This document shows positions 26,156 to 37,080 of a DNA stretch of 64,000 nt, one piece after another (position 1 is the stretch's first letter; each line of letters opens with the position of its first letter). The translations under genes were made by a program, and so were the position numbers. The notes beneath the pieces are model-generated. The model had not been told where the DNA came from, did not search any database, and saw only the letters and a program-made list of their open reading frames with translations. The stretch is from a virus: IMG/VR virus record IMGVR_UViG_3300042879_004946, positions 44,458-108,457 of that record. One strand, written 5' to 3'.

Positions 26156-27694
26156 ATGGGTATTTTACATACATATTTTACGAAAAATAATACAATAGTT
26201 AGGAATTCTTACGTTAACACGGGTAAAAATCCTGTTGTCGAGTTATTCCATGGTGGTTCATTAAATGCCGACCAAGTAACTTATTCTAGATATATATTTA
26301 GTTTTGATTTTACGGAAATACTCCAAAGGTTGAATGCTAAACAAACAACTTTGGATAAAATGTCACACACTTTAAAAATCACAAACACTTCAACATTTGA
26401 TGAAGAACAATTTTGTAAAAGTGTTAATTCTTGTATTGGGGATGTTAAAAGATCAACTTGTTTTGATTTAATTCTTTTTGAAATTCCTGAAGCTTGGGCA
26501 GAAGGTGATGGTTACGATTATACCGATGTTAAAATAAGTTGTTCTGATAGTGATAGAACTTATTGTGAGGGACCATCAAACTGGTTTCAAAGAAATAATC
26601 TAATAAATTGTTGGTCAATCCCTGGTATTTATAGTGACCCAACAAATTGGTGTTCTGGGAGCACTTCTGGAGCAACTTCAGGTGGTACTACATGTTCAGG
26701 TGGTACTAATTTAATTATTGCAACACAACATTTCGATTATGGTGACGAAAATGTTAATATCGATATCACTTCTTATATTAACAATTTAATTTTAAGTGGT
26801 TATACCGGTTTAACTTATGGTTTAGGATTGGCATACGCAAATGCTTTAGAAATTGCACCATTGGAAAACGCAGAATATGTTGGTTTTTTTAGTCGTCACA
26901 CAAATACTGTTTATGAACCTTTTTTAGAAACTAAATGGGATGACACCATAAAAGACGATAGAGACAACTTTTATTTAAATAAAGATAACAACATATGTCT
27001 TTATGTTAATGCGGGTGGACAAGCAACTAATGCAACTTTTTCAGGGGTAACCATTTACGATCAATTAGGTAATGTTTTTAAAGAAATACCACCTTCTGGA
27101 ATTACACAAGTAACCACGGGCGTTTATTGTGTTAATTTTGCGGTCGACGATAATCCGGCATCAGGTTATTGTGGCAATATCCAATTCACTGATGTGTGGC
27201 AAGACGTTACTATTGGTAACAAAAATTTAGGTGATGTTGAACTTAGTTTTATTGTTTTAGAGGCTGATGACTACTATCGTATAGGTTCTAGTAATAGTGC
27301 TGGTGCAAACGGTTTAGGTGTCGGTAAGGCTACCAATTTGTCTATTTATGAATATGATGTTAATATTCGTGGTATTAAATATAAAGAAAAAATTAAAAGA
27401 GGTGATACCAGAAGAATTAATGTTGATGTCAGAATTCCATACACATACGATTCTACTGTTACACTAGATAAGGTTTATTATCGTATGTATACTTTAGATA
27501 ATGGAACTACACAAATAGAATATATTGATTGGCAAGAAATAAGTAGAACACCAGATGGTAACTTTTTTATTGTTGACACTTCTTGGTTTATACCTAATGA
27601 TTATTTTATTGAGATTAAAATAGAATCAGGTAACGAGGTTAGGACTTTTCCACAAACAATCTCGTTTACAATTGTATCAGAAAAAAACGTATGA
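26156..27694 (+). CDS. Probable virion structural protein
   Basis: Beta-rich composition, SGST/SGGT-type repeats, promoter motif and context. Confidence 0.55.
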   Translation: MGILHTYFTKNNTIVRNSYVNTGKNPVVELFHGGSLNADQVTYSRYIFSFDFTEILQRLNAKQTTLDKMSHTLKITNTSTFDEEQFCKSVNSCIGDVKRSTCFDLILFEIPEAWAEGDGYDYTDVKISCSDSDRTYCEGPSNWFQRNNLINCWSIPGIYSDPTNWCSGSTSGATSGGTTCSGGTNLIIATQHFDYGDENVNIDITSYINNLILSGYTGLTYGLGLAYANALEIAPLENAEYVGFFSRHTNTVYEPFLETKWDDTIKDDRDNFYLNKDNNICLYVNAGGQATNATFSGVTIYDQLGNVFKEIPPSGITQVTTGVYCVNFAVDDNPASGYCGNIQFTDVWQDVTIGNKNLGDVELSFIVLEADDYYRIGSSNSAGANGLGVGKATNLSIYEYDVNIRGIKYKEKIKRGDTRRINVDVRIPYTYDSTVTLDKVYYRMYTLDNGTTQIEYIDWQEISRTPDGNFFIVDTSWFIPNDYFIEIKIESGNEVRTFPQTISFTIVSEKNV

Positions 27695-28068
27695 AAAACC
27701 TTATAAGAAAAATATTAAAAGAAGAATTTGATGATTTTGGTTGGGCTGAAGAATTGATTGGTAATACTAAACAATTTTCCCCCGCTGAAGAGTTCTTATA
27801 TGAAATCATGTCCAATTTAAAGGCAGTTACTTCGGAAAAAAATCCAGGTTGGATGGAGTATAAGGATGAAAGTGGGGTTATTTTAATGGCGGATAATGTG
27901 GATAGAAATGAAAAAACCCCCCATTTATGGGTTGATTATGATAAAATTTGGAGAAAATTAAATCAAAAATTTGGTCTTAACAATCAGGAAGCCAAAGACT
28001 TATGCGTGCGTATGCTGGAGATGGTTCATAAACGAAAGGTGTTGACAGCTGATGTCGGGCAGTGGTGA
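27691..28068 (+). CDS. Array-fused small protein A (paralog of 36694..37080)
   Basis: MKNLIRKILKEE leader; C-terminal LEMVHKRKVLTA is encoded by repeat 1, and the stop codon lies in the spacer. Confidence 0.85.
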   Translation: MKNLIRKILKEEFDDFGWAEELIGNTKQFSPAEEFLYEIMSNLKAVTSEKNPGWMEYKDESGVILMADNVDRNEKTPHLWVDYDKIWRKLNQKFGLNNQEAKDLCVRMLEMVHKRKVLTADVGQW

Positions 28069-28115
28069 CGCTTTTTTAGGCTGGAGATGGTTCATAAACG
28101 AAAGGTGTTGACAGA
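28014..28115 (+). CRISPR. CRISPR-like mini-array: 2 repeats of 36 nt, 1 spacer of 30 nt
   Basis: GCTGGAGATGGTTCATAAACGAAAGGTGTTGACAG(C/A) at 28014-28049 and 28080-28115; spacer 28050-28079 TGATGTCGGGCAGTGGTGACGCTTTTTTAG. Confidence 0.7.
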
Positions 28116-28138
28116 TCCAATTATTTAGAGTATAAATA

Positions 28139-28166
28139 AAAAAACCCAGATTAATCTGGGTTTTTT
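28139..28166. terminator. Bidirectional intrinsic terminator
   Basis: Palindrome AAAACCCAGATTAATCTGGGTTTT between convergent genes, just after the mini-array. Confidence 0.8.
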
Positions 28167-28185: not shown

Positions 28186-28605
28186 TTAAGCGTAATATTT
28201 TCCTTTTGACATCGCATCTTCACGCTTTTTCATGTAATCCATTTTCTTTTTCTTCATGTAATCCATTTGTTGCATTTTGTTTCTTTGTTGAACAAACTTA
28301 GCAATTTTTTCTTTGGAATCCAACAACTTATTTTGAAGTGCTAAAAACTGCCTTCTCATACCATCAATATCTTTGGCAAAACCATCATTACCTGTAACTT
28401 GTTGACATAAATCACCGAATTTCTGACCAGCCCCACTAACCATTTGAATGATATCTTCTACGGAAGATAATTCACCATTATTTGTTTGTAACAACTCAAT
28501 ACTTTTTTCTTCTTTTGGTTTTGGCATCGATTGTTCTTCCTCACGAATAATTTTTTTAACCAACTTTTCAATATCGTTTTCATTTAATTTAATTATATTT
28601 TTCAT
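28186..28605 (-). CDS. Hypothetical protein with IKLNE..KKIIREE leader
   Basis: Start moved to ATG 28605, which follows an ATATTTATA motif (28620-28628) and avoids overlap with the 28694 gene. Confidence 0.7.
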   Translation of the reverse strand: MKNIIKLNENDIEKLVKKIIREEEQSMPKPKEEKSIELLQTNNGELSSVEDIIQMVSGAGQKFGDLCQQVTGNDGFAKDIDGMRRQFLALQNKLLDSKEKIAKFVQQRNKMQQMDYMKKKKMDYMKKREDAMSKGKYYA

Positions 28606-28693
28606 ATTAATGTTTTTTATATAAATATCAACAAAAGAAATAAAATTGACAATTTCAGATAAAATTTGTAATTTTGTTTTATAAGTAAAAAAA

Positions 28694-29434
28694 ATGGCAA
28701 AAAAGAAAGATATCAAAATTCAAAACCCCAAATTTACAATTGATTTAATTGAAATTTTGGCCGAAAATGACCCAACAGATAGCAACAAATACTTACCTTT
28801 TATGGTTAAACAGGCAGAAAGTTGGGTTGATTGGTTGATAAATGAACTTAAAAATAACACTTTTAAAGACATGTTTGAAACTATAAGAGATTTTGAAGAT
28901 ATGTCTGCCAAAAATTTAATCAGCAACAAAGACATCTATTCTTATAACAACAACCAAGAAATTGTTGATTCTATAAAAATGGCAAAAGAAAAAATCACCA
29001 AAAGTCAAGTAAAAAAGAATGAAACCATAATACTACATGAAGATGACCGTTATTTGGTTTTACAACCATTAACCAGCAGAAGCTCTAACTTATATGGAAA
29101 AGCAACTAAATGGTGTGTTTCATCAGAACAAAATGATTTTAAAAAATATTTTAACCAATATATAGATTCAGGTTCTCTTGTTTTTTTTATCGATAAATCA
29201 GTTAAAGAAGAAGAGACAAGAAATGAAACACTTTCAAAAATTGCATTCCACAGAGATAACGTAAAAGGTTTAACCGTTTGGGACACCAAAGATGTTCAAT
29301 TAAATGCTGAAACCATACTTGGCTTATCGGAAATAATTCCAACAGACATATTAAGTATTATTATGAAAGCAACTAAAGATAAAACTAATAGAGAGTTGGC
29401 CGAAGAAAAAGGCATCAAAAAAGAAACTTTTTAA
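28694..29434 (+). CDS. Hypothetical protein with a PcfJ-like (G..TKWC) domain
   Basis: DP..NKYL, KDIYSY and LYGKATKWCVS are shared with 48606..51401; TTGACA upstream. Confidence 0.6.
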   Translation: MAKKKDIKIQNPKFTIDLIEILAENDPTDSNKYLPFMVKQAESWVDWLINELKNNTFKDMFETIRDFEDMSAKNLISNKDIYSYNNNQEIVDSIKMAKEKITKSQVKKNETIILHEDDRYLVLQPLTSRSSNLYGKATKWCVSSEQNDFKKYFNQYIDSGSLVFFIDKSVKEEETRNETLSKIAFHRDNVKGLTVWDTKDVQLNAETILGLSEIIPTDILSIIMKATKDKTNRELAEEKGIKKETF

Positions 29435-29445
29435 CAAAAATTAAA

Positions 29446-29709
29446 ATGGAGTTTAAAACACTAAAAGAACAATATATTGATTTGGTAACTGAAAAAGTAT
29501 CCATTAATAAAGAAGATCTTACAGAAACCGAATCCGCCATAATCGATATTGGTTACAATTTGTTGGTTGAAAAATTGGAAGATATAAAAATTCTAAAAGA
29601 TGAACTTCGTAGAATTTCCATTGATTTGGCTAACATGAAAGTTTTTAATGCAGATGTTAAAAATAAATATTGTGATGATTCCGATATCTTAGATGAAGAT
29701 TGTTTTTAA
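29446..29709 (+). CDS. Hypothetical protein
   Basis: ORF with an A-rich leader. Confidence 0.55.
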   Translation: MEFKTLKEQYIDLVTEKVSINKEDLTETESAIIDIGYNLLVEKLEDIKILKDELRRISIDLANMKVFNADVKNKYCDDSDILDEDCF

Positions 29710-30386
29710 ACAATTTGACTTAAAAACTTCCTAATGGAACGACGAATGACACCTTTCTCAATATTAGGAAAATTCTCTTGTAATTCAATAAATAATTTAT
29801 TTGTTAAATAACTTTTATTACCTTCGATGAAATAAGGTTTTTCATCTACAACAATATAGGGTTTATTATCATAGATATCTGGGATTGTTAATCTATTGAT
29901 TTCATAATTATCCTCCAAATAAGAAATAATTGGATCTTCGACCCTAAAAGGATCTCTTCTGGTAAGTTCAAAAGCCCAATCATATTCTTCAGATTCTTTT
30001 AAAAATGTTGTTTTAAAAAAAGGTTCTAAAACTTTTATAAGATGTAAATATTCGTCAGAAATTTGCATATTTGTTGCTGTTCTCGCAACGTGCTCAAGTT
30101 CACTTTTAATATTTTTAATATTGAAATCTCTTGCAAACCAAGTTTCATATGTTCCAAGATTATCACGAATATGATACATATCTTGTTCAGGGAAGTCTTC
30201 ATCTCTATCAACATCAACAATAAATTTGGATCCTATAAGTGGTTTTTTATCTTTTAAAAATTTATTTAACTCTGAATAAAGTAATTCTGCCTCACTTTTT
30301 GGGTTATCTTGGTAATATTTTATTATATGATAAACCCAATCATATTCTTCAGATTCTTTTAATATTTTACGGATTAAATTTTTCAT
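29706..30386 (-). CDS. Hypothetical protein with MKNLIRKILKE leader and duplicated LKESEEYDW
   Basis: Leader shared with the 27691 and 37080 genes; promoter motif at 30391-30399. Confidence 0.75.
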   Translation of the reverse strand: MKNLIRKILKESEEYDWVYHIIKYYQDNPKSEAELLYSELNKFLKDKKPLIGSKFIVDVDRDEDFPEQDMYHIRDNLGTYETWFARDFNIKNIKSELEHVARTATNMQISDEYLHLIKVLEPFFKTTFLKESEEYDWAFELTRRDPFRVEDPIISYLEDNYEINRLTIPDIYDNKPYIVVDEKPYFIEGNKSYLTNKLFIELQENFPNIEKGVIRRSIRKFLSQIV

Positions 30387-30401: not shown

Positions 30402-32117
30402 TTAAAAATTGATTTCGTATTTAAATAAACCACAATCCCATATCCTGTCATAACCCAAAAGTTTAACCATTTCCCACTCAGTTAATGAATTATCGAATCC
30501 ATATTTTTGTATTATTTTTTTCTTACTCAATCTGAATTTATGGAATCTATCATTAGTATTAGTTCTTTTAAAATAAAAATAACTTTGCTTACTATTACCA
30601 ATATAACTAAAACCTATTTTAGTATATAAATTATCTTGATGTGATAAAGTCCATCTTCTATCGGCGAAACTTATTATTTTTTTAGGGTTATAATCATTTA
30701 TAAATTTTTTCATCATTTTACTACCTAAACCACTTATTTTATATTGTTTACTAGTAGCAAACCTGTTTAATACAAAAACATCACTGCTATTTTTGGCATT
30801 ATTCATTCCTCTGTTATTTGAAAATGACATAACACCTACTAAAACGTCACCATAAAAAGCTCCATAATTGATGGGTGATAAATCCTCTCCTTGTATATGA
30901 TTTTCATTTAAAAAATCACATTTTAAATGGAAATCAATTTTCATAACATTGCATTTTCTGGCACCTATTTTAATACCGTCAGACTTTTTAAGTAGATTTT
31001 TTAATTTTTCTTTTACTATTTCTTTTTTTAATATCCATTCATCGGAAAAAATATGTATTAAACCATATCCAGCAAAATTCATTAATAAAGTTTTATTTAA
31101 ATGATAATTTAAATCTTTATGACCAAAATCTTCAGAGTGCCATAAAACACCATTATATTCTATACCTATTTTTAATTCAGGTATTAAAATATCAATTTCC
31201 ACACCTTTTAAAACAGTTCTATCATTAGTTATAATTTGTAAATCTAAGCTTTTTATGAAATCAATAATTTCTTTTTCTTCCTTTGATGATTTATTAAAAG
31301 TTTTAGTTTGATTAATTATTTTACAATTTTCACTTAAAAAATTTGATATTGTTTTTGAAACTATTTTTGGTGTACCATATAATTCATTATATTTTTTCAT
31401 TGTAATACCATGTTTATTTTTAAGATGAGTATTAGTTATTACACCAAACTTTTCACCACAAATCTCACATATTACATGATTCGATTTATCATTTAAAAAA
31501 TTTAATCTTTTAACTTTTTTTTCGTGTGTTGGGTGGTATACAATGTCTTCAGGGTATTCATTTAGATATTCTTCTAAGGTTTTACTGTGTTCTTTTTTTA
31601 AATGATTTTCATAATAACCACTTTTATTGTTAATATCTATTGTTTCCCATGTACAGTATCTACATTTTCTTGTTGCCACATGTTCTAATGGTATTTCTTT
31701 TAAATCAAAAAATATTTCATGCCAATACTTACCTGTGGTTTTAAATAACATACTTCTTTTATATTGCGAAGGTATTTCTATATCACCTATTATTTGTTTA
31801 ATATGTGTAAATAATACGCCCGATTTATTTGAATAATCATTAAATACCTTACCAGTAGATTTACATATTGCTATTATTTTTTTACCATTTTCTAATAAAT
31901 TTTTATTAACAACATTTTGTGTTATAATGATATCACCGTATTTTTTTTGACCACCTTTTTTATTTATTTCAATACCGTTTGACTTTAGTACGTCACTTAT
32001 TTTTTTATGACCTACTGAAAATATTTTAGCTAACTTATGTGTACTAGAAACATTACCGCTTGTATATAAATTTATTATTTTATTGATCTCTGATTGTGTT
32101 AATTTTTTTATTTTCAT
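30402..32117 (-). CDS. Hef-like free-standing homing endonuclease (HTH, Zn fingers, PD-(D/E)xK-like and GNAT-like C-terminal region)
   Basis: CRYC..HLKKEH, CEIC..HLKNKH, EIDI..GIEYNGVLWHS, IHIFSDEW, ISFADRRW; lies directly downstream of the MCP gene. Confidence 0.7.
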   Translation of the reverse strand: MKIKKLTQSEINKIINLYTSGNVSSTHKLAKIFSVGHKKISDVLKSNGIEINKKGGQKKYGDIIITQNVVNKNLLENGKKIIAICKSTGKVFNDYSNKSGVLFTHIKQIIGDIEIPSQYKRSMLFKTTGKYWHEIFFDLKEIPLEHVATRKCRYCTWETIDINNKSGYYENHLKKEHSKTLEEYLNEYPEDIVYHPTHEKKVKRLNFLNDKSNHVICEICGEKFGVITNTHLKNKHGITMKKYNELYGTPKIVSKTISNFLSENCKIINQTKTFNKSSKEEKEIIDFIKSLDLQIITNDRTVLKGVEIDILIPELKIGIEYNGVLWHSEDFGHKDLNYHLNKTLLMNFAGYGLIHIFSDEWILKKEIVKEKLKNLLKKSDGIKIGARKCNVMKIDFHLKCDFLNENHIQGEDLSPINYGAFYGDVLVGVMSFSNNRGMNNAKNSSDVFVLNRFATSKQYKISGLGSKMMKKFINDYNPKKIISFADRRWTLSHQDNLYTKIGFSYIGNSKQSYFYFKRTNTNDRFHKFRLSKKKIIQKYGFDNSLTEWEMVKLLGYDRIWDCGLFKYEINF

Positions 32118-34118: not shown

Positions 34119-35672
34119 TTATTTTTTGTAACCGTATTCCCAAAGTTTTTTCATGTTTTGTAACTCTGGATGTACAAAAACTGTTTGTTCACTAATTTGA
34201 ACTGATCCACTAGAAGCAGTTTTATTAAGTTTTTCCTCAACAGATTCTTTAATTGTAGGTTTTGAATTAGTAAATTCTTTAACAAGTTGTTTATAGATTG
34301 ATTGAGATTCTTTTAAAGATTTTGCCTCATCTAATCTTTTTAAAATTTCTTGTTTTTCCTCTTTTGTTGTACTTTGTTCAGTAAATAATCTAACTGCGTA
34401 AGTAAGATTGCTGTTGAAAACTGCTACTTCTTGAAGTTTATTTCTGAATTGTTTTAATGCGTCAACCATTTTTTCTTGGTTAGCTTTTAATTCTTCATTT
34501 TCACTTCTAAGAGTTGAAACAGATTCACTTAGATTTGTGTTTTCGTTGATGAGTTTGGAGATTTGTGGATTTTTAGATTCACCCATATAAGTTGAATTAC
34601 CCATTCTTGCTATTGCGTTAGGGTTGGTTCTATTACCTACACGATATCTACCTTTTGTAGATTTTGTTCTACTTGCGTAATCTTCATCACTATGCCTCAT
34701 GTAAGAAGACATTTCATCTTCGTTACCTTTTTTACGAGCCGCTATAACATCACCCATAGTAACTTTATTTTTGTCCCCATACATAGAGGCAAGTTCTTGG
34801 TTTGTATTATATTTTTTACGTTTCATATACATTGGCATTGACATTTTACGTTCATTAGAATTCATATCCATATAGTCTTCATCCATATAGTCTTCATCCA
34901 TATAGTCTTCATCCATATAGTCTTCATCCATATAGTCTTCATCCATATAGTCTTCATCCATATAGTCTTCATCCATATAGTCTTCATCCATATAGTCTTC
35001 ATCAACTACAATTTCATATATAACTTGATTGGATTCACTTAAACCTTCTTCCATAGATGACATTTCAACATCACCTACTTCACCGGTTCTAGTATTAAGT
35101 TCAATTCTATACTCAGATCCTGACTTATTATCTTTCAAGGTAACCATACCATTATCGTTAACAACTTCGATTTCATCTTCTGGTCCCATTTTTTTGAAAA
35201 CAGAGATTACATCAGCGTCGGAACTATCTGTAAGGTCGACAGTATCCATTGGTTCCATCATTCCTACATCTTCGGTTTCGTCACCTAAATCAAGGTCCAT
35301 ATCCATATCTTCCATATCTTCATCTTCTTCAGATTCCATGTCTTCCATATCAAGATCCATGTCCATGTCCTCGTCATCACCTTCTTCTGCGCCCATGTCT
35401 AAATCCAAATCCATTTCTTCTTCACCTTCTTCGGTATCCAAATCCATTTCTTCTTCATTGTCATCGTCAGAATCAAGTTCTAAGTCAATTTCCTCCTCTT
35501 CATCTTCCTTCAAACCCTTTTTTGAACCTGTAAGAGATTCCTTTACCATTTCTTCAATTTCTGAACTCATAGTGTGAGCCAGTATTTCTTTTGCGTTTGA
35601 TTTGAAAGCGGCGTCGATTTTTTCTGCCTCTAGAAGAGCTTCTTCAATAATTGATTTTTTTTCGTTTGCCAT
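34119..35672 (-). CDS. Prohead core/scaffold protein (acidic, coiled-coil)
   Basis: Immediately upstream of MCP; very acidic; many (L/I)xE sites. Confidence 0.7.
   Translation of the reverse strand: MANEKKSIIEEALLEAEKIDAAFKSNAKEILAHTMSSEIEEMVKESLTGSKKGLKEDEEEEIDLELDSDDDNEEEMDLDTEEGEEEMDLDLDMGAEEGDDEDMDMDLDMEDMESEEDEDMEDMDMDLDLGDETEDVGMMEPMDTVDLTDSSDADVISVFKKMGPEDEIEVVNDNGMVTLKDNKSGSEYRIELNTRTGEVGDVEMSSMEEGLSESNQVIYEIVVDEDYMDEDYMDEDYMDEDYMDEDYMDEDYMDEDYMDEDYMDEDYMDMNSNERKMSMPMYMKRKKYNTNQELASMYGDKNKVTMGDVIAARKKGNEDEMSSYMRHSDEDYASRTKSTKGRYRVGNRTNPNAIARMGNSTYMGESKNPQISKLINENTNLSESVSTLRSENEELKANQEKMVDALKQFRNKLQEVAVFNSNLTYAVRLFTEQSTTKEEKQEILKRLDEAKSLKESQSIYKQLVKEFTNSKPTIKESVEEKLNKTASSGSVQISEQTVFVHPELQNMKKLWEYGYKK
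34866..35003 (-). repeat. Perfect 15-bp tandem repeat x9 encoding DEDYM
   Basis: ATCCATATAGTCTTC repeated nine times from 34866. Confidence 0.95.
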
Positions 35673-35817: not shown

Positions 35818-36294
35818 ATGAAAGCAATAATTAAAAAAATACTTAGAGAATACGTTGAAAATAATCTTAGAAATGATGATTTTATGCGAAAAATTGATTA
35901 TGCACAAAAAAAAGCAATAATCGATTCCGAATATCCAACAGAGACAAAAGAAATTAAAAAAATAGAAAAAGATATAAAAAATAAAGTAGAAAGGGCCTAC
36001 AAAGATGTAACGGGTGAAGAACCTGAGAGTGTGGATAACATTGTTGTTAAAGTTGATGATACAATGCCACCAGAAAAAATTGGTTCATTTAAACATCCTA
36101 AAAACAAAAAAGACATCGGATTGATGAAAATTCATCCCGATGCCTTAAATGACAAAAACTATGTTAAAGATATTTTAAAACATGAGTTGATACATGCGGC
36201 TCATGGTTTGGAAGATACCACGGCAAGAAACCATGGGGGTGTTTTTCAAAAAGTTGCAGATAAAGTTGGATTGCCCAAAAAATATCGTCACTAG
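35818..36294 (+). CDS. SprT-like zinc metallopeptidase with MKAIIKKILRE leader
   Basis: ILKHELIHAAH..HGGVFQK. Confidence 0.75.
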   Translation: MKAIIKKILREYVENNLRNDDFMRKIDYAQKKAIIDSEYPTETKEIKKIEKDIKNKVERAYKDVTGEEPESVDNIVVKVDDTMPPEKIGSFKHPKNKKDIGLMKIHPDALNDKNYVKDILKHELIHAAHGLEDTTARNHGGVFQKVADKVGLPKKYRH

Positions 36295-36603: not shown

Positions 36604-36769
36604 GTTGTCAACACCTTTCGTTTATGGGTCATCTCCAGCGCACAAGGCCAGGGGGCTCATCGCCCCTTGCTGTAAACACCTTTCGTTTATGGGTCATTTC
36701 CAGCGGTAAATTATGCCAGACTTATTGGTGTAAGCTGACAATACCTTTCGTTTATGGGTCATTTCCAGC
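36604..36769 (-). CRISPR. CRISPR-like mini-array: 3 repeats of 36 nt, 2 spacers of 29 nt
   Basis: Minus-strand repeats GCTGGARATGACCCATAAACGAAAGGTRTTKWCARC at 36734-36769, 36669-36704 and 36604-36639; spacers TTACACCAATAAGTCTGGCATAATTTACC and AAGGGGCGATGAGCCCCCTGGCCTTGTGC. Confidence 0.8.
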
Positions 36770-37080
36770 ATACGCATACATAAGTCTTTGATTTCTTGTT
36801 CATTAAGACCAAATTCTTGACGTAATTTTAACCAAATTTGACGATAATCAACTAATAAATAAGGTTTTTTTTTATCTCTATCCACACTATCCGCCATTAA
36901 AGTAACCCCACTTTTATCCTTATATAACATCAAACCTGGATAATTTTTTGAAGGAACCACCTTTAAGTTTGACATGATTTCATACAAAAATTCTTCAGCG
37001 GGGGAAAATTCTTTAATTTCCCCCACCCAATCAAAATCATCAAATTCTTCTCTCAATATTTTTCTTATAAGATTTTTCAT
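36694..37080 (-). CDS. Array-fused small protein B (paralog of 27691..28068)
   Basis: Shares FSPAEEFLYEIMSNLK, YKD.SGV.LMAD and VDY..IW.KL; reads through repeat 1 and spacer 1 and stops in repeat 2. Confidence 0.85.
   Translation of the reverse strand: MKNLIRKILREEFDDFDWVGEIKEFSPAEEFLYEIMSNLKVVPSKNYPGLMLYKDKSGVTLMADSVDRDKKKPYLLVDYRQIWLKLRQEFGLNEQEIKDLCMRMLEMTHKRKVLSAYTNKSGIIYRWK

Follow-up and report, generated by a model that had tools for sequence, protein, structure and literature searches.

We analysed a 64,000-nucleotide stretch of viral DNA (the window), which comprises bases 44458–108457 of the 108,457-bp IMG/VR record IMGVR_UViG_3300042879_004946 (G000; about 33% complete according to CheckV). 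The source phage is T4-like, with genes for Gp23, the Gp20 portal protein, an S77 prohead protease and a family B polymerase present in the record. At one site in the window, locus A, a 125-amino-acid (aa) open reading frame (ORF) runs into a miniature CRISPR-type array. The conserved coding sequence ends in 36 nucleotides (nt) that serve as this array's leader-proximal repeat, and new 30-nt spacers enter beside the gene, each time duplicating the repeat. The spacer found at locus A is a perfect copy of a Flavobacteriales-type chromosomal gene, in a phage lineage without a recognisable cas gene. The features on which the argument turns, including those of a second site, locus B, are listed here in window positions.

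27691–28068, + strand: 125-aa ORF, one member of a multi-copy phage gene family; repeat 1 forms its final conserved codons, and the spacer holds its tail and stop
27999–28013, + strand: junction directly 5' of repeat 1, conserved and coding for ..LCVRM, in the position of a CRISPR leader–repeat junction
28014–28049, + strand: direct repeat 1, GTT variant, 36 nt, translated as (M)LEMVHKRKVLTA
28050–28079, + strand: spacer of locus A, 30 nt, an exact copy of a chromosomal gene in Flavobacteriales/Bacteroidota metagenome-assembled genomes (MAGs)
28080–28115, + strand: terminal direct repeat (repeat 2), matching repeat 1 at 35/36 positions, the mismatch being the last base
28139–28166, both strands: bidirectional intrinsic terminator with a 12–13-bp stem and flanking A/T runs, between the array and the convergent gene
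28186–28716, − strand: convergent gene downstream of the locus A array
36694–37080, − strand: 128-aa paralogue at locus B, likewise continuing into an array of its own
36604–36769, − strand: locus B array, with three ACC-type repeats and two 29-nt spacers

An earlier reading of the sequence letters alone (the original prediction) had described two repeats, a spacer, an ORF reading through the first repeat and a terminator at locus A, and all of these were found where it had placed them. The ORF stops in the spacer after DVGQW, and its start overlaps the stop of an upstream 512-aa ORF in an ATGA at 27691–27694. Repeat positions 11–13 read GTT in both repeats of locus A and ACC in all three of locus B. 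The window contains five copies of a 21-nt repeat core (two at locus A and three at locus B), against an expectation of none from 100 shuffles. The locus A spacer has a G+C content of 50% (15/30), and that of the genome is 30.7%.

The fused array family and its growth

We collected 28 distinct arrays in related phage contigs, which together contain 44 unique spacers. Three further gene-plus-array units lie upstream of the window in G000, two related phage contigs hold nine more, and repeat-core scans of viral and metagenome collections revealed additional contigs with arrays; every contig recovered by the metagenome scan was of phage origin. All 28 arrays are preceded by the same junction, which is coding and belongs to one gene family, no unfused array was found among them, and the copies are dispersed, at 5–8 per genome. 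The repeats are 36 nt long and the spacers 28–32 nt (33 of the 44 are exactly 30 nt), with a 36+30 periodicity.

The arrays also carry a record of how they grew. Gene-distal repeats are degenerate at their 3' ends, and three spacers are common to different contigs as the trailer-most spacer, with additional spacers on the gene side. The shared trailer spacers and gene-side additions argue for polarised, leader-proximal acquisition. The proposal that spacers had been acquired with duplication of the repeat was thus upheld, with growth at the gene-proximal end in the three shared-trailer cases. The accompanying proposal that repeats are homogenised within each locus holds at loci A and B but is not absolute: at an orthologous locus of the related contig G001 (G001:48316–48549), repeat 1 is of the ACC type and repeats 2–4 are of the GTT type, which indicates that a change in repeat 1 need not be accompanied by one in its copies. 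We consider it very probable that locus A is a true array of the CRISPR type and that it was built by integrase-type acquisition.

Fusion to the gene end extends to distant members of the family (31–55% protein identity), which have different 36-nt repeats, some of them with canonical GTTG..CAAC termini. In one ortholog of locus A (L099) the repeat has decayed and there is no array; the locus A terminator is present 3' of this array-less ortholog and 3' of the orthologous arrays in G001. Two longer proteins have the same C-terminal domain at their end. One, of 522 aa (L048:11514–13079), also ends in the repeat and runs into a four-spacer array, and the other, of 425 aa (L052:12685–13959), is accompanied by a solitary degenerate repeat only.

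The gene family comprises 139 clusters at 90% identity, all of them metagenomic and unnamed. In the gene body, the ratio of nonsynonymous to synonymous substitution rates (dN/dS) is 0.38 and dS is 0.57, which indicates a real protein under purifying selection. In the 11 codons of repeat 1, dN/dS is 0.49 and dS is 0.14, fourfold below the gene body, and this low dS points, on sequence comparison, to extra nucleotide-level constraint or to homogenisation. In the junction at 27999–28013, dS is only slightly lower than in the gene body (0.46 versus 0.57). AlphaFold (AF2) modelling predicted a confident alpha/beta domain at residues 31–125, with a predicted local distance difference test score (pLDDT) of 85, and placed residues 119–123 in a beta-strand. 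Searches of Pfam, PHROGs and PDB (with Foldseek) gave no match that assigns a function to the 125-aa protein, a wide fold search with VIA-align gave no informative match (best Z 4.5), and the matches in BFVD were to uncharacterised phage proteins only.

The N-terminal leader of the protein, MK[ND]LI[KR]KILKE, is common to unrelated ORFs, 8 in G000 and 14 in G004, a 96%-complete, 318-kb relative. It occurs in the window at 27691–27726, 37045–37080 (− strand), 29709–30386 (− strand) and 35818–36294, and at G000:36537–36881. The leader holds an L-x-E motif that we take to be like the capsid-targeting and cleavage signals of T4, and by this analogy the leader-bearing proteins may be packaged internal proteins.

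Origin of the spacers

The search for a target of the locus A spacer, suggested together with the original prediction, identified a protospacer in freshwater Bacteroidota. Eight contigs of a genome collection matched a 20-nt core of the spacer, and full-length comparison then showed 30/30 identity in four Bacteroidota MAGs (L165, L167, L171 and L172) and 29/30 identity in L166 and L169. The perfect matches are in Lake Mendota Flavobacteriales and Flavobacterium MAGs, a Lake Erken Bacteroidetes bin and a MAG of 35% G+C labelled Chitinophaga. The gene that contains the protospacer encodes an SBBP beta-propeller protein with a Por_Secre_tail sorting domain of the type IX secretion system (T9SS), a Bacteroidota hallmark, and the spacer on the phage sense strand corresponds to the host coding strand. 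At locus B, spacer 1 (36705–36733) matches the MazG gene of a Lake Mendota Bacteroidia MAG at 29/29 positions and is antisense to it. The match of locus B spacer 2 (69% G+C) is borderline, a core of 24/29 in a Solirubrobacteraceae MAG. Judged from sequence identity, the exact spacer matches would point to freshwater Flavobacteriales as hosts of this uncultured lineage of giant phages.

None of 48 spacers matched phage DNA in about 700 kb of the phage's own and related sequence, including G004. The locus A unit, the only unit searched among the GenBank phages (INPHARED), had no match there, and three spacer cores had no match in IMG/VR, one core probably lying across a database chunk border. 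Nine spacers from arrays of the related contig G002 had no match in the five protospacer-bearing MAGs.

Transcribed strand, repeat fold and CRISPR type

The original prediction placed a functional RNA hairpin on the mRNA strand, and several observations favour that strand. Folding both repeat variants on both strands, as had been proposed, gave the more stable structures in the sense orientation, with minimum free energies of −8.6 and −7.1 kcal/mol versus −5.8 and −2.1 kcal/mol in the antisense orientation. Across 33 distinct non-terminal repeats, 89.7% of cells are paired in the sense hairpin and 71.5% in its antisense mirror. With 34 repeats, the sense cells comprise 234 Watson–Crick pairs, 71 G–U pairs and 35 mismatches, and the antisense mirror contains 9 G–U pairs and 97 mismatches. 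With RNAalifold, a weak consensus structure emerged for the sense strand and none for the antisense strand. Pairs 7–30 and 10–27 vary among G–U, A–U and G–C, which makes sense only on the sense strand, and pair 2–35 changes from C–G to U–A in three repeats. With its terminator and convergent gene, locus A has no obvious source of antisense transcription. On these grounds the predicted strand gained support, and of the two strands the sense (mRNA) strand is the more likely to give a functional RNA. The start/stop overlap makes it plausible that the 125-aa ORF is co-transcribed with the upstream gene; the virion operon proposed for the upstream genes is putative, with one weak baseplate-hub match in PHROGs and no Pfam match. 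In Rfam, the repeat had no CRISPR direct-repeat (CRISPR-DR) match, and the search gave terminator-like noise only.

One of the arguments for this strand had to be given up. The original prediction reasoned that the ACC-to-GTT difference between the loci preserves pairing on the sense strand through G–U wobbles. In repeat 1, however, this difference is a Thr-to-Val codon change: two of its substitutions (A>G and C>T) are forced by the isosteric replacement of Thr by Val, and the third transition is synonymous. Since the codon change explains the difference, its wobble compatibility adds almost no independent evidence. The Val variant is also present in family members P0010, P0098 and P0120. The difference is a conservative codon change of the kind that had been listed as speaking against the prediction, but the sense-strand conclusion survives on the other evidence.

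To place the array among CRISPR types, we compared it with real Cas13b loci, which are present in 4 of 401 sampled genomes from the family of a protospacer-bearing MAG. In three of these four loci, the stretch retrieved includes adjacent repeats at a 66-nt period, and the two fully extracted repeats (L195 and L196) are 36 nt long with GTTG..CAAC ends. The repeat ends of the phage are GCTG..CAGC here and GTTG..CAAC in relatives, and both fit GYTG..CARC. The phage repeat folds in the same outline as the L195 and L196 sense strands: a 4-bp outer stem leads through an internal loop to an inner stem. Phage repeats are identical to the L195 and L196 repeats at 15–23 of 36 positions versus about 9 for shuffles (P of 0.017 or lower). 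Text searches for Cas13b and Cas13X repeat strings gave no match, and the comparison rests on the repeats of these real loci.

In Flavobacterium, type VI-B arrays without cas1 and cas2 are filled in trans by a II-C module and acquire host-genome spacers about as often as phage spacers (Hoikkala et al., PMC8092290). Transcription of VI-B arrays runs from the leader into the array, whereas II-C arrays are transcribed toward the leader, and in other species the repeats of II-C arrays exceed the 36-nt VI-B repeats by about 11 nt (PMC8092290). The phage array fits these observations, which suggests that it works like a VI-B array. It shares with the VI-B arrays of Bacteroidota, as described in Flavobacterium columnare (PMC8092290), the 36-nt repeat, spacers of about 30 nt, the 66-nt period, the GYTG..CARC inverted ends, a hairpin predicted on the leader-to-array strand, growth at the leader end, the lack of cas1 and cas2 in cis, and host-chromosome spacers. 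Unlike a VI-B array, it has no cas13b adjacent or elsewhere in the phage records searched, and so lacks the effector gene of that type. Its leader and first repeat are protein-coding, it is present in 5–8 dispersed copies in the phage genome, and no host array with an identical repeat was found. On balance, the sequence comparisons make it likely that the array is of the VI-B type and is read on the sense strand.

We searched the phages themselves for cas genes and effectors. PADLOC found no Cas family in 96 ORFs of G000 or in 144 ORFs of G004, the scan of G004 leaving out two giant ORFs (2687 and 2213 aa) and ORFs of less than 230 aa (Cas2-sized). A six-frame search of G004 with a Cas13b hidden Markov model covered both the giant and the small ORFs omitted from the PADLOC scan. 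The NCBIfam Cas13b model NF038190 was absent from G000, G001, G002, G004 and G005; two of the phage records searched with it are at least 96% complete (relatives of 96% and 100%). A scan for two HEPN motifs yielded two effector candidates, neither of which was retained: a 605-aa ORF is a DNA helicase, and an 871-aa ORF of G004 had no PADLOC or PDB match. The 871-aa ORF (L140:204–2816; G004:40204–42819) is built of modules separated by linkers of the E-x-DFGWAEDII type, and this linker motif corresponds to residues 12–22 of the 125-aa family.

One protospacer-bearing MAG contains a type II-C locus with a Cas9 of 1487 aa, Cas1, Cas2, a 47-nt repeat and 29–30-nt spacers. This MAG (L184; G011:C28:21000–40878) is Flavobacteriales-like, has about 31–35% G+C and is labelled Chitinophaga pinensis; its II-C array has at least nine spacers and continues up to the contig end.

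Other genes were noted in passing. A homing endonuclease gene lies close to locus A (30405–32117, − strand; phrog_3339, E 2.5e-84), and G000 also contains an intein splicing domain and one match to the Phage_integrase family of Pfam. A 15-nt tandem repeat of about 10 copies at 34866–35003 codes for (DEDYM)n in a very acidic 517-aa protein, the ORF of which spans 34119–35672 on the − strand.

Competing explanations and possible function

Our preferred explanation, to which as a whole, with the mechanism set out below, we assign a probability of roughly 55%, is that locus A is a genuine CRISPR-type mini-array of VI-B architecture in the 3' end of a phage gene. Several results weigh against it. 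Arrays with the phage repeat were found in none of 185,579 species representatives in two scans, one for the exact repeat core and one for a degenerate repeat-family pattern, the latter giving 24 single chance matches and no array. The five protospacer-bearing MAGs contained no array with the phage repeat by BLAST or by a generic 36+30 array pattern, which produced chance matches only. A BLAST search with the repeat–spacer–repeat unit matched only the spacer in the 401 family genomes and the five MAGs. No Cas13b was found in these five MAGs, which are incomplete, and hence no effector was identified; the true host may be unsampled. Relative to host transcription, the two traced spacers lie in opposite orientations to each other and so give no sign of selection for RNA targeting. 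Only two pairs of the hairpin change on both sides, and the covariation analysis that had been proposed gave no significant result, as 79 of 500 shuffles reached the observed pairing in the formal test. Identity to the Cas13b repeats is about as high in the reverse orientation, because the repeat ends are palindromic. Host-directed Cas13b guides would moreover be expected to be harmful or neutral to the phage.

The failure to find an effector or a matching host array is also what speaks for the array as an integration sink or by-product, in which the gene end resembles a host repeat and leader junction and receives ectopic Cas1–Cas2 insertions but no guide RNA is made; at most, adaptation events would be drawn away from the host's own array. 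Such an origin is consistent with host-DNA spacers in either orientation, with arrays that stay short (1–4 spacers), with the loss of the array in L099 and with the stop that distal repeats frequently restore immediately behind the conserved Thr codon. We nevertheless judge it unlikely: synonymous sites of the repeat are kept fourfold better than those in the rest of the gene, internal untranslated repeats remain intact, the fusion persists where repeats have diverged together with the protein C terminus (L100, L103 and L104), and the unit is maintained in 5–8 copies per genome. It is improbable, too, that the array is of the type II-C (Cas9) style and is read antisense, with transcription from within the array toward the gene-side leader. 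Repeats of 36 nt, spacers of 30 nt and GTTGT-type ends occur in II-C loci as well, II-C arrays are transcribed toward the leader (PMC8092290), a candidate host has a II-C locus, and the resemblance to Cas13b repeats is similar in both orientations. However, the candidate host's II-C repeat is 47 nt long with an unrelated interior, the antisense strand of the phage repeat has no consensus structure and 97 mismatched cells, incoming antisense transcription would be blocked at locus A by the terminator and convergent gene, and no anti-repeat or trans-activating CRISPR RNA (tracrRNA) was seen.

Two further explanations were weighed. In the first, spacers would matter as coding sequence, each insertion creating a new C-terminal tail. 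The ORF continues from repeat 1 into the spacer, the 66-nt unit preserves the reading frame, tails in the family vary in length and some pass through the second repeat, and the AF2 model predicts a beta-strand at residues 119–123. Against this, the tail sequences are unrelated, and distal spacers and repeats are mostly untranslated yet conserved. We also considered, and rejected, the idea that every spacer supplies an in-frame stop: stops are present in 20 of 44 spacers in the gene frame, versus 23/44 and 10/44 in the other frames, and this lack of enrichment means that no selection on spacer-encoded tails is seen among the 44 spacers. Tail diversification therefore seems very improbable to us. 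For locus A alone, with its two repeats and one spacer, one could entertain an origin unrelated to CRISPR, in which the gene end was duplicated by chance or carries some other tandem repeat. Such an origin has a negligible probability given the five copies of the repeat core where none is expected, the strict 36+30 periodicity and unique spacers of the related arrays, and spacers that are exact copies of foreign DNA.

If locus A is a VI-B-type mini-array, a host adaptation module would insert fragments of host DNA at the phage repeat mimics during infection. The likely module would be a type II-C Cas1–Cas2, because II-C modules are known to supply VI-B arrays with spacers in trans, those from the host genome included, and host fragments would be plentiful if the T4-like phage degrades the host chromosome. 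The array would then be transcribed as a 3' extension of the gene's mRNA, and the repeat would fold on the sense strand into a Cas13b-style hairpin, so that the phage would supply repeat-bearing RNAs to be bound by a Cas13b-type effector of the host. The most likely benefit would be that this effector is occupied, or redirected with guides that do not target the phage. That the array brings a counter-defence benefit of this kind is a tentative suggestion, to which we give rather less than an even chance. A more elaborate version, which we regard as quite unlikely, is that the phage uses the host adaptation machinery as a recorder and that its mRNA-borne guides load the host Cas13b-type effector in later infections. 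Translated phage genes at dispersed sites would take up pieces of the infected host's chromosome, progeny would inherit them, and the effector would be blinded or turned on host transcripts, amounting to a self-updating, host-specific shut-off or counter-defence.

Huge phage genomes reportedly carry compact CRISPR arrays, some without adaptation or effector genes, in intergenic positions. The arrays described here likewise reside in huge phage genomes but, unlike those orphan arrays, are fused to a gene. Virus-borne mini-arrays such as those of the Saccharolobus viruses SPV1 and SPV2 (PMC11656645) are also cas-less, have few spacers and presumably depend on host Cas proteins. Those known viral mini-arrays carry repeats identical to those of host arrays, and their spacers are mostly directed at related viruses (PMC11656645), whereas for the phage arrays we found no identical host repeat and no spacer matching related phages; both traced spacers derive from host-type chromosomes, and the first repeat is read as protein. 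RNA anti-CRISPRs (Racrs; PMC10651486) are phage repeat mimics able to occupy host Cas proteins, and a Racr-like occupation is the mechanism that we favour for a benefit of the array. Racrs are non-coding, solitary repeat units without acquired spacers (PMC10651486), unlike locus A, which is a repeat–spacer–repeat unit with active acquisition, lies inside an mRNA and has a coding first repeat. In the literature searched, we found no description of a fusion between an array and a dedicated gene family.

Known virus-borne mini-arrays are intergenic, copy the arrays of hosts and are directed against rival viruses. What sets the present case apart is that the first repeat and leader form the coding end of a dedicated, multi-copy phage gene, that the traced spacers are fragments of host chromosomes, and that no cas gene was found even in near-complete genomes. 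If the arrays are functional, the phage would exploit both the adaptation and the effector stages of a host RNA-targeting CRISPR system, and the gene family would provide a natural case of a single sequence constrained both as protein and as CRISPR repeat.

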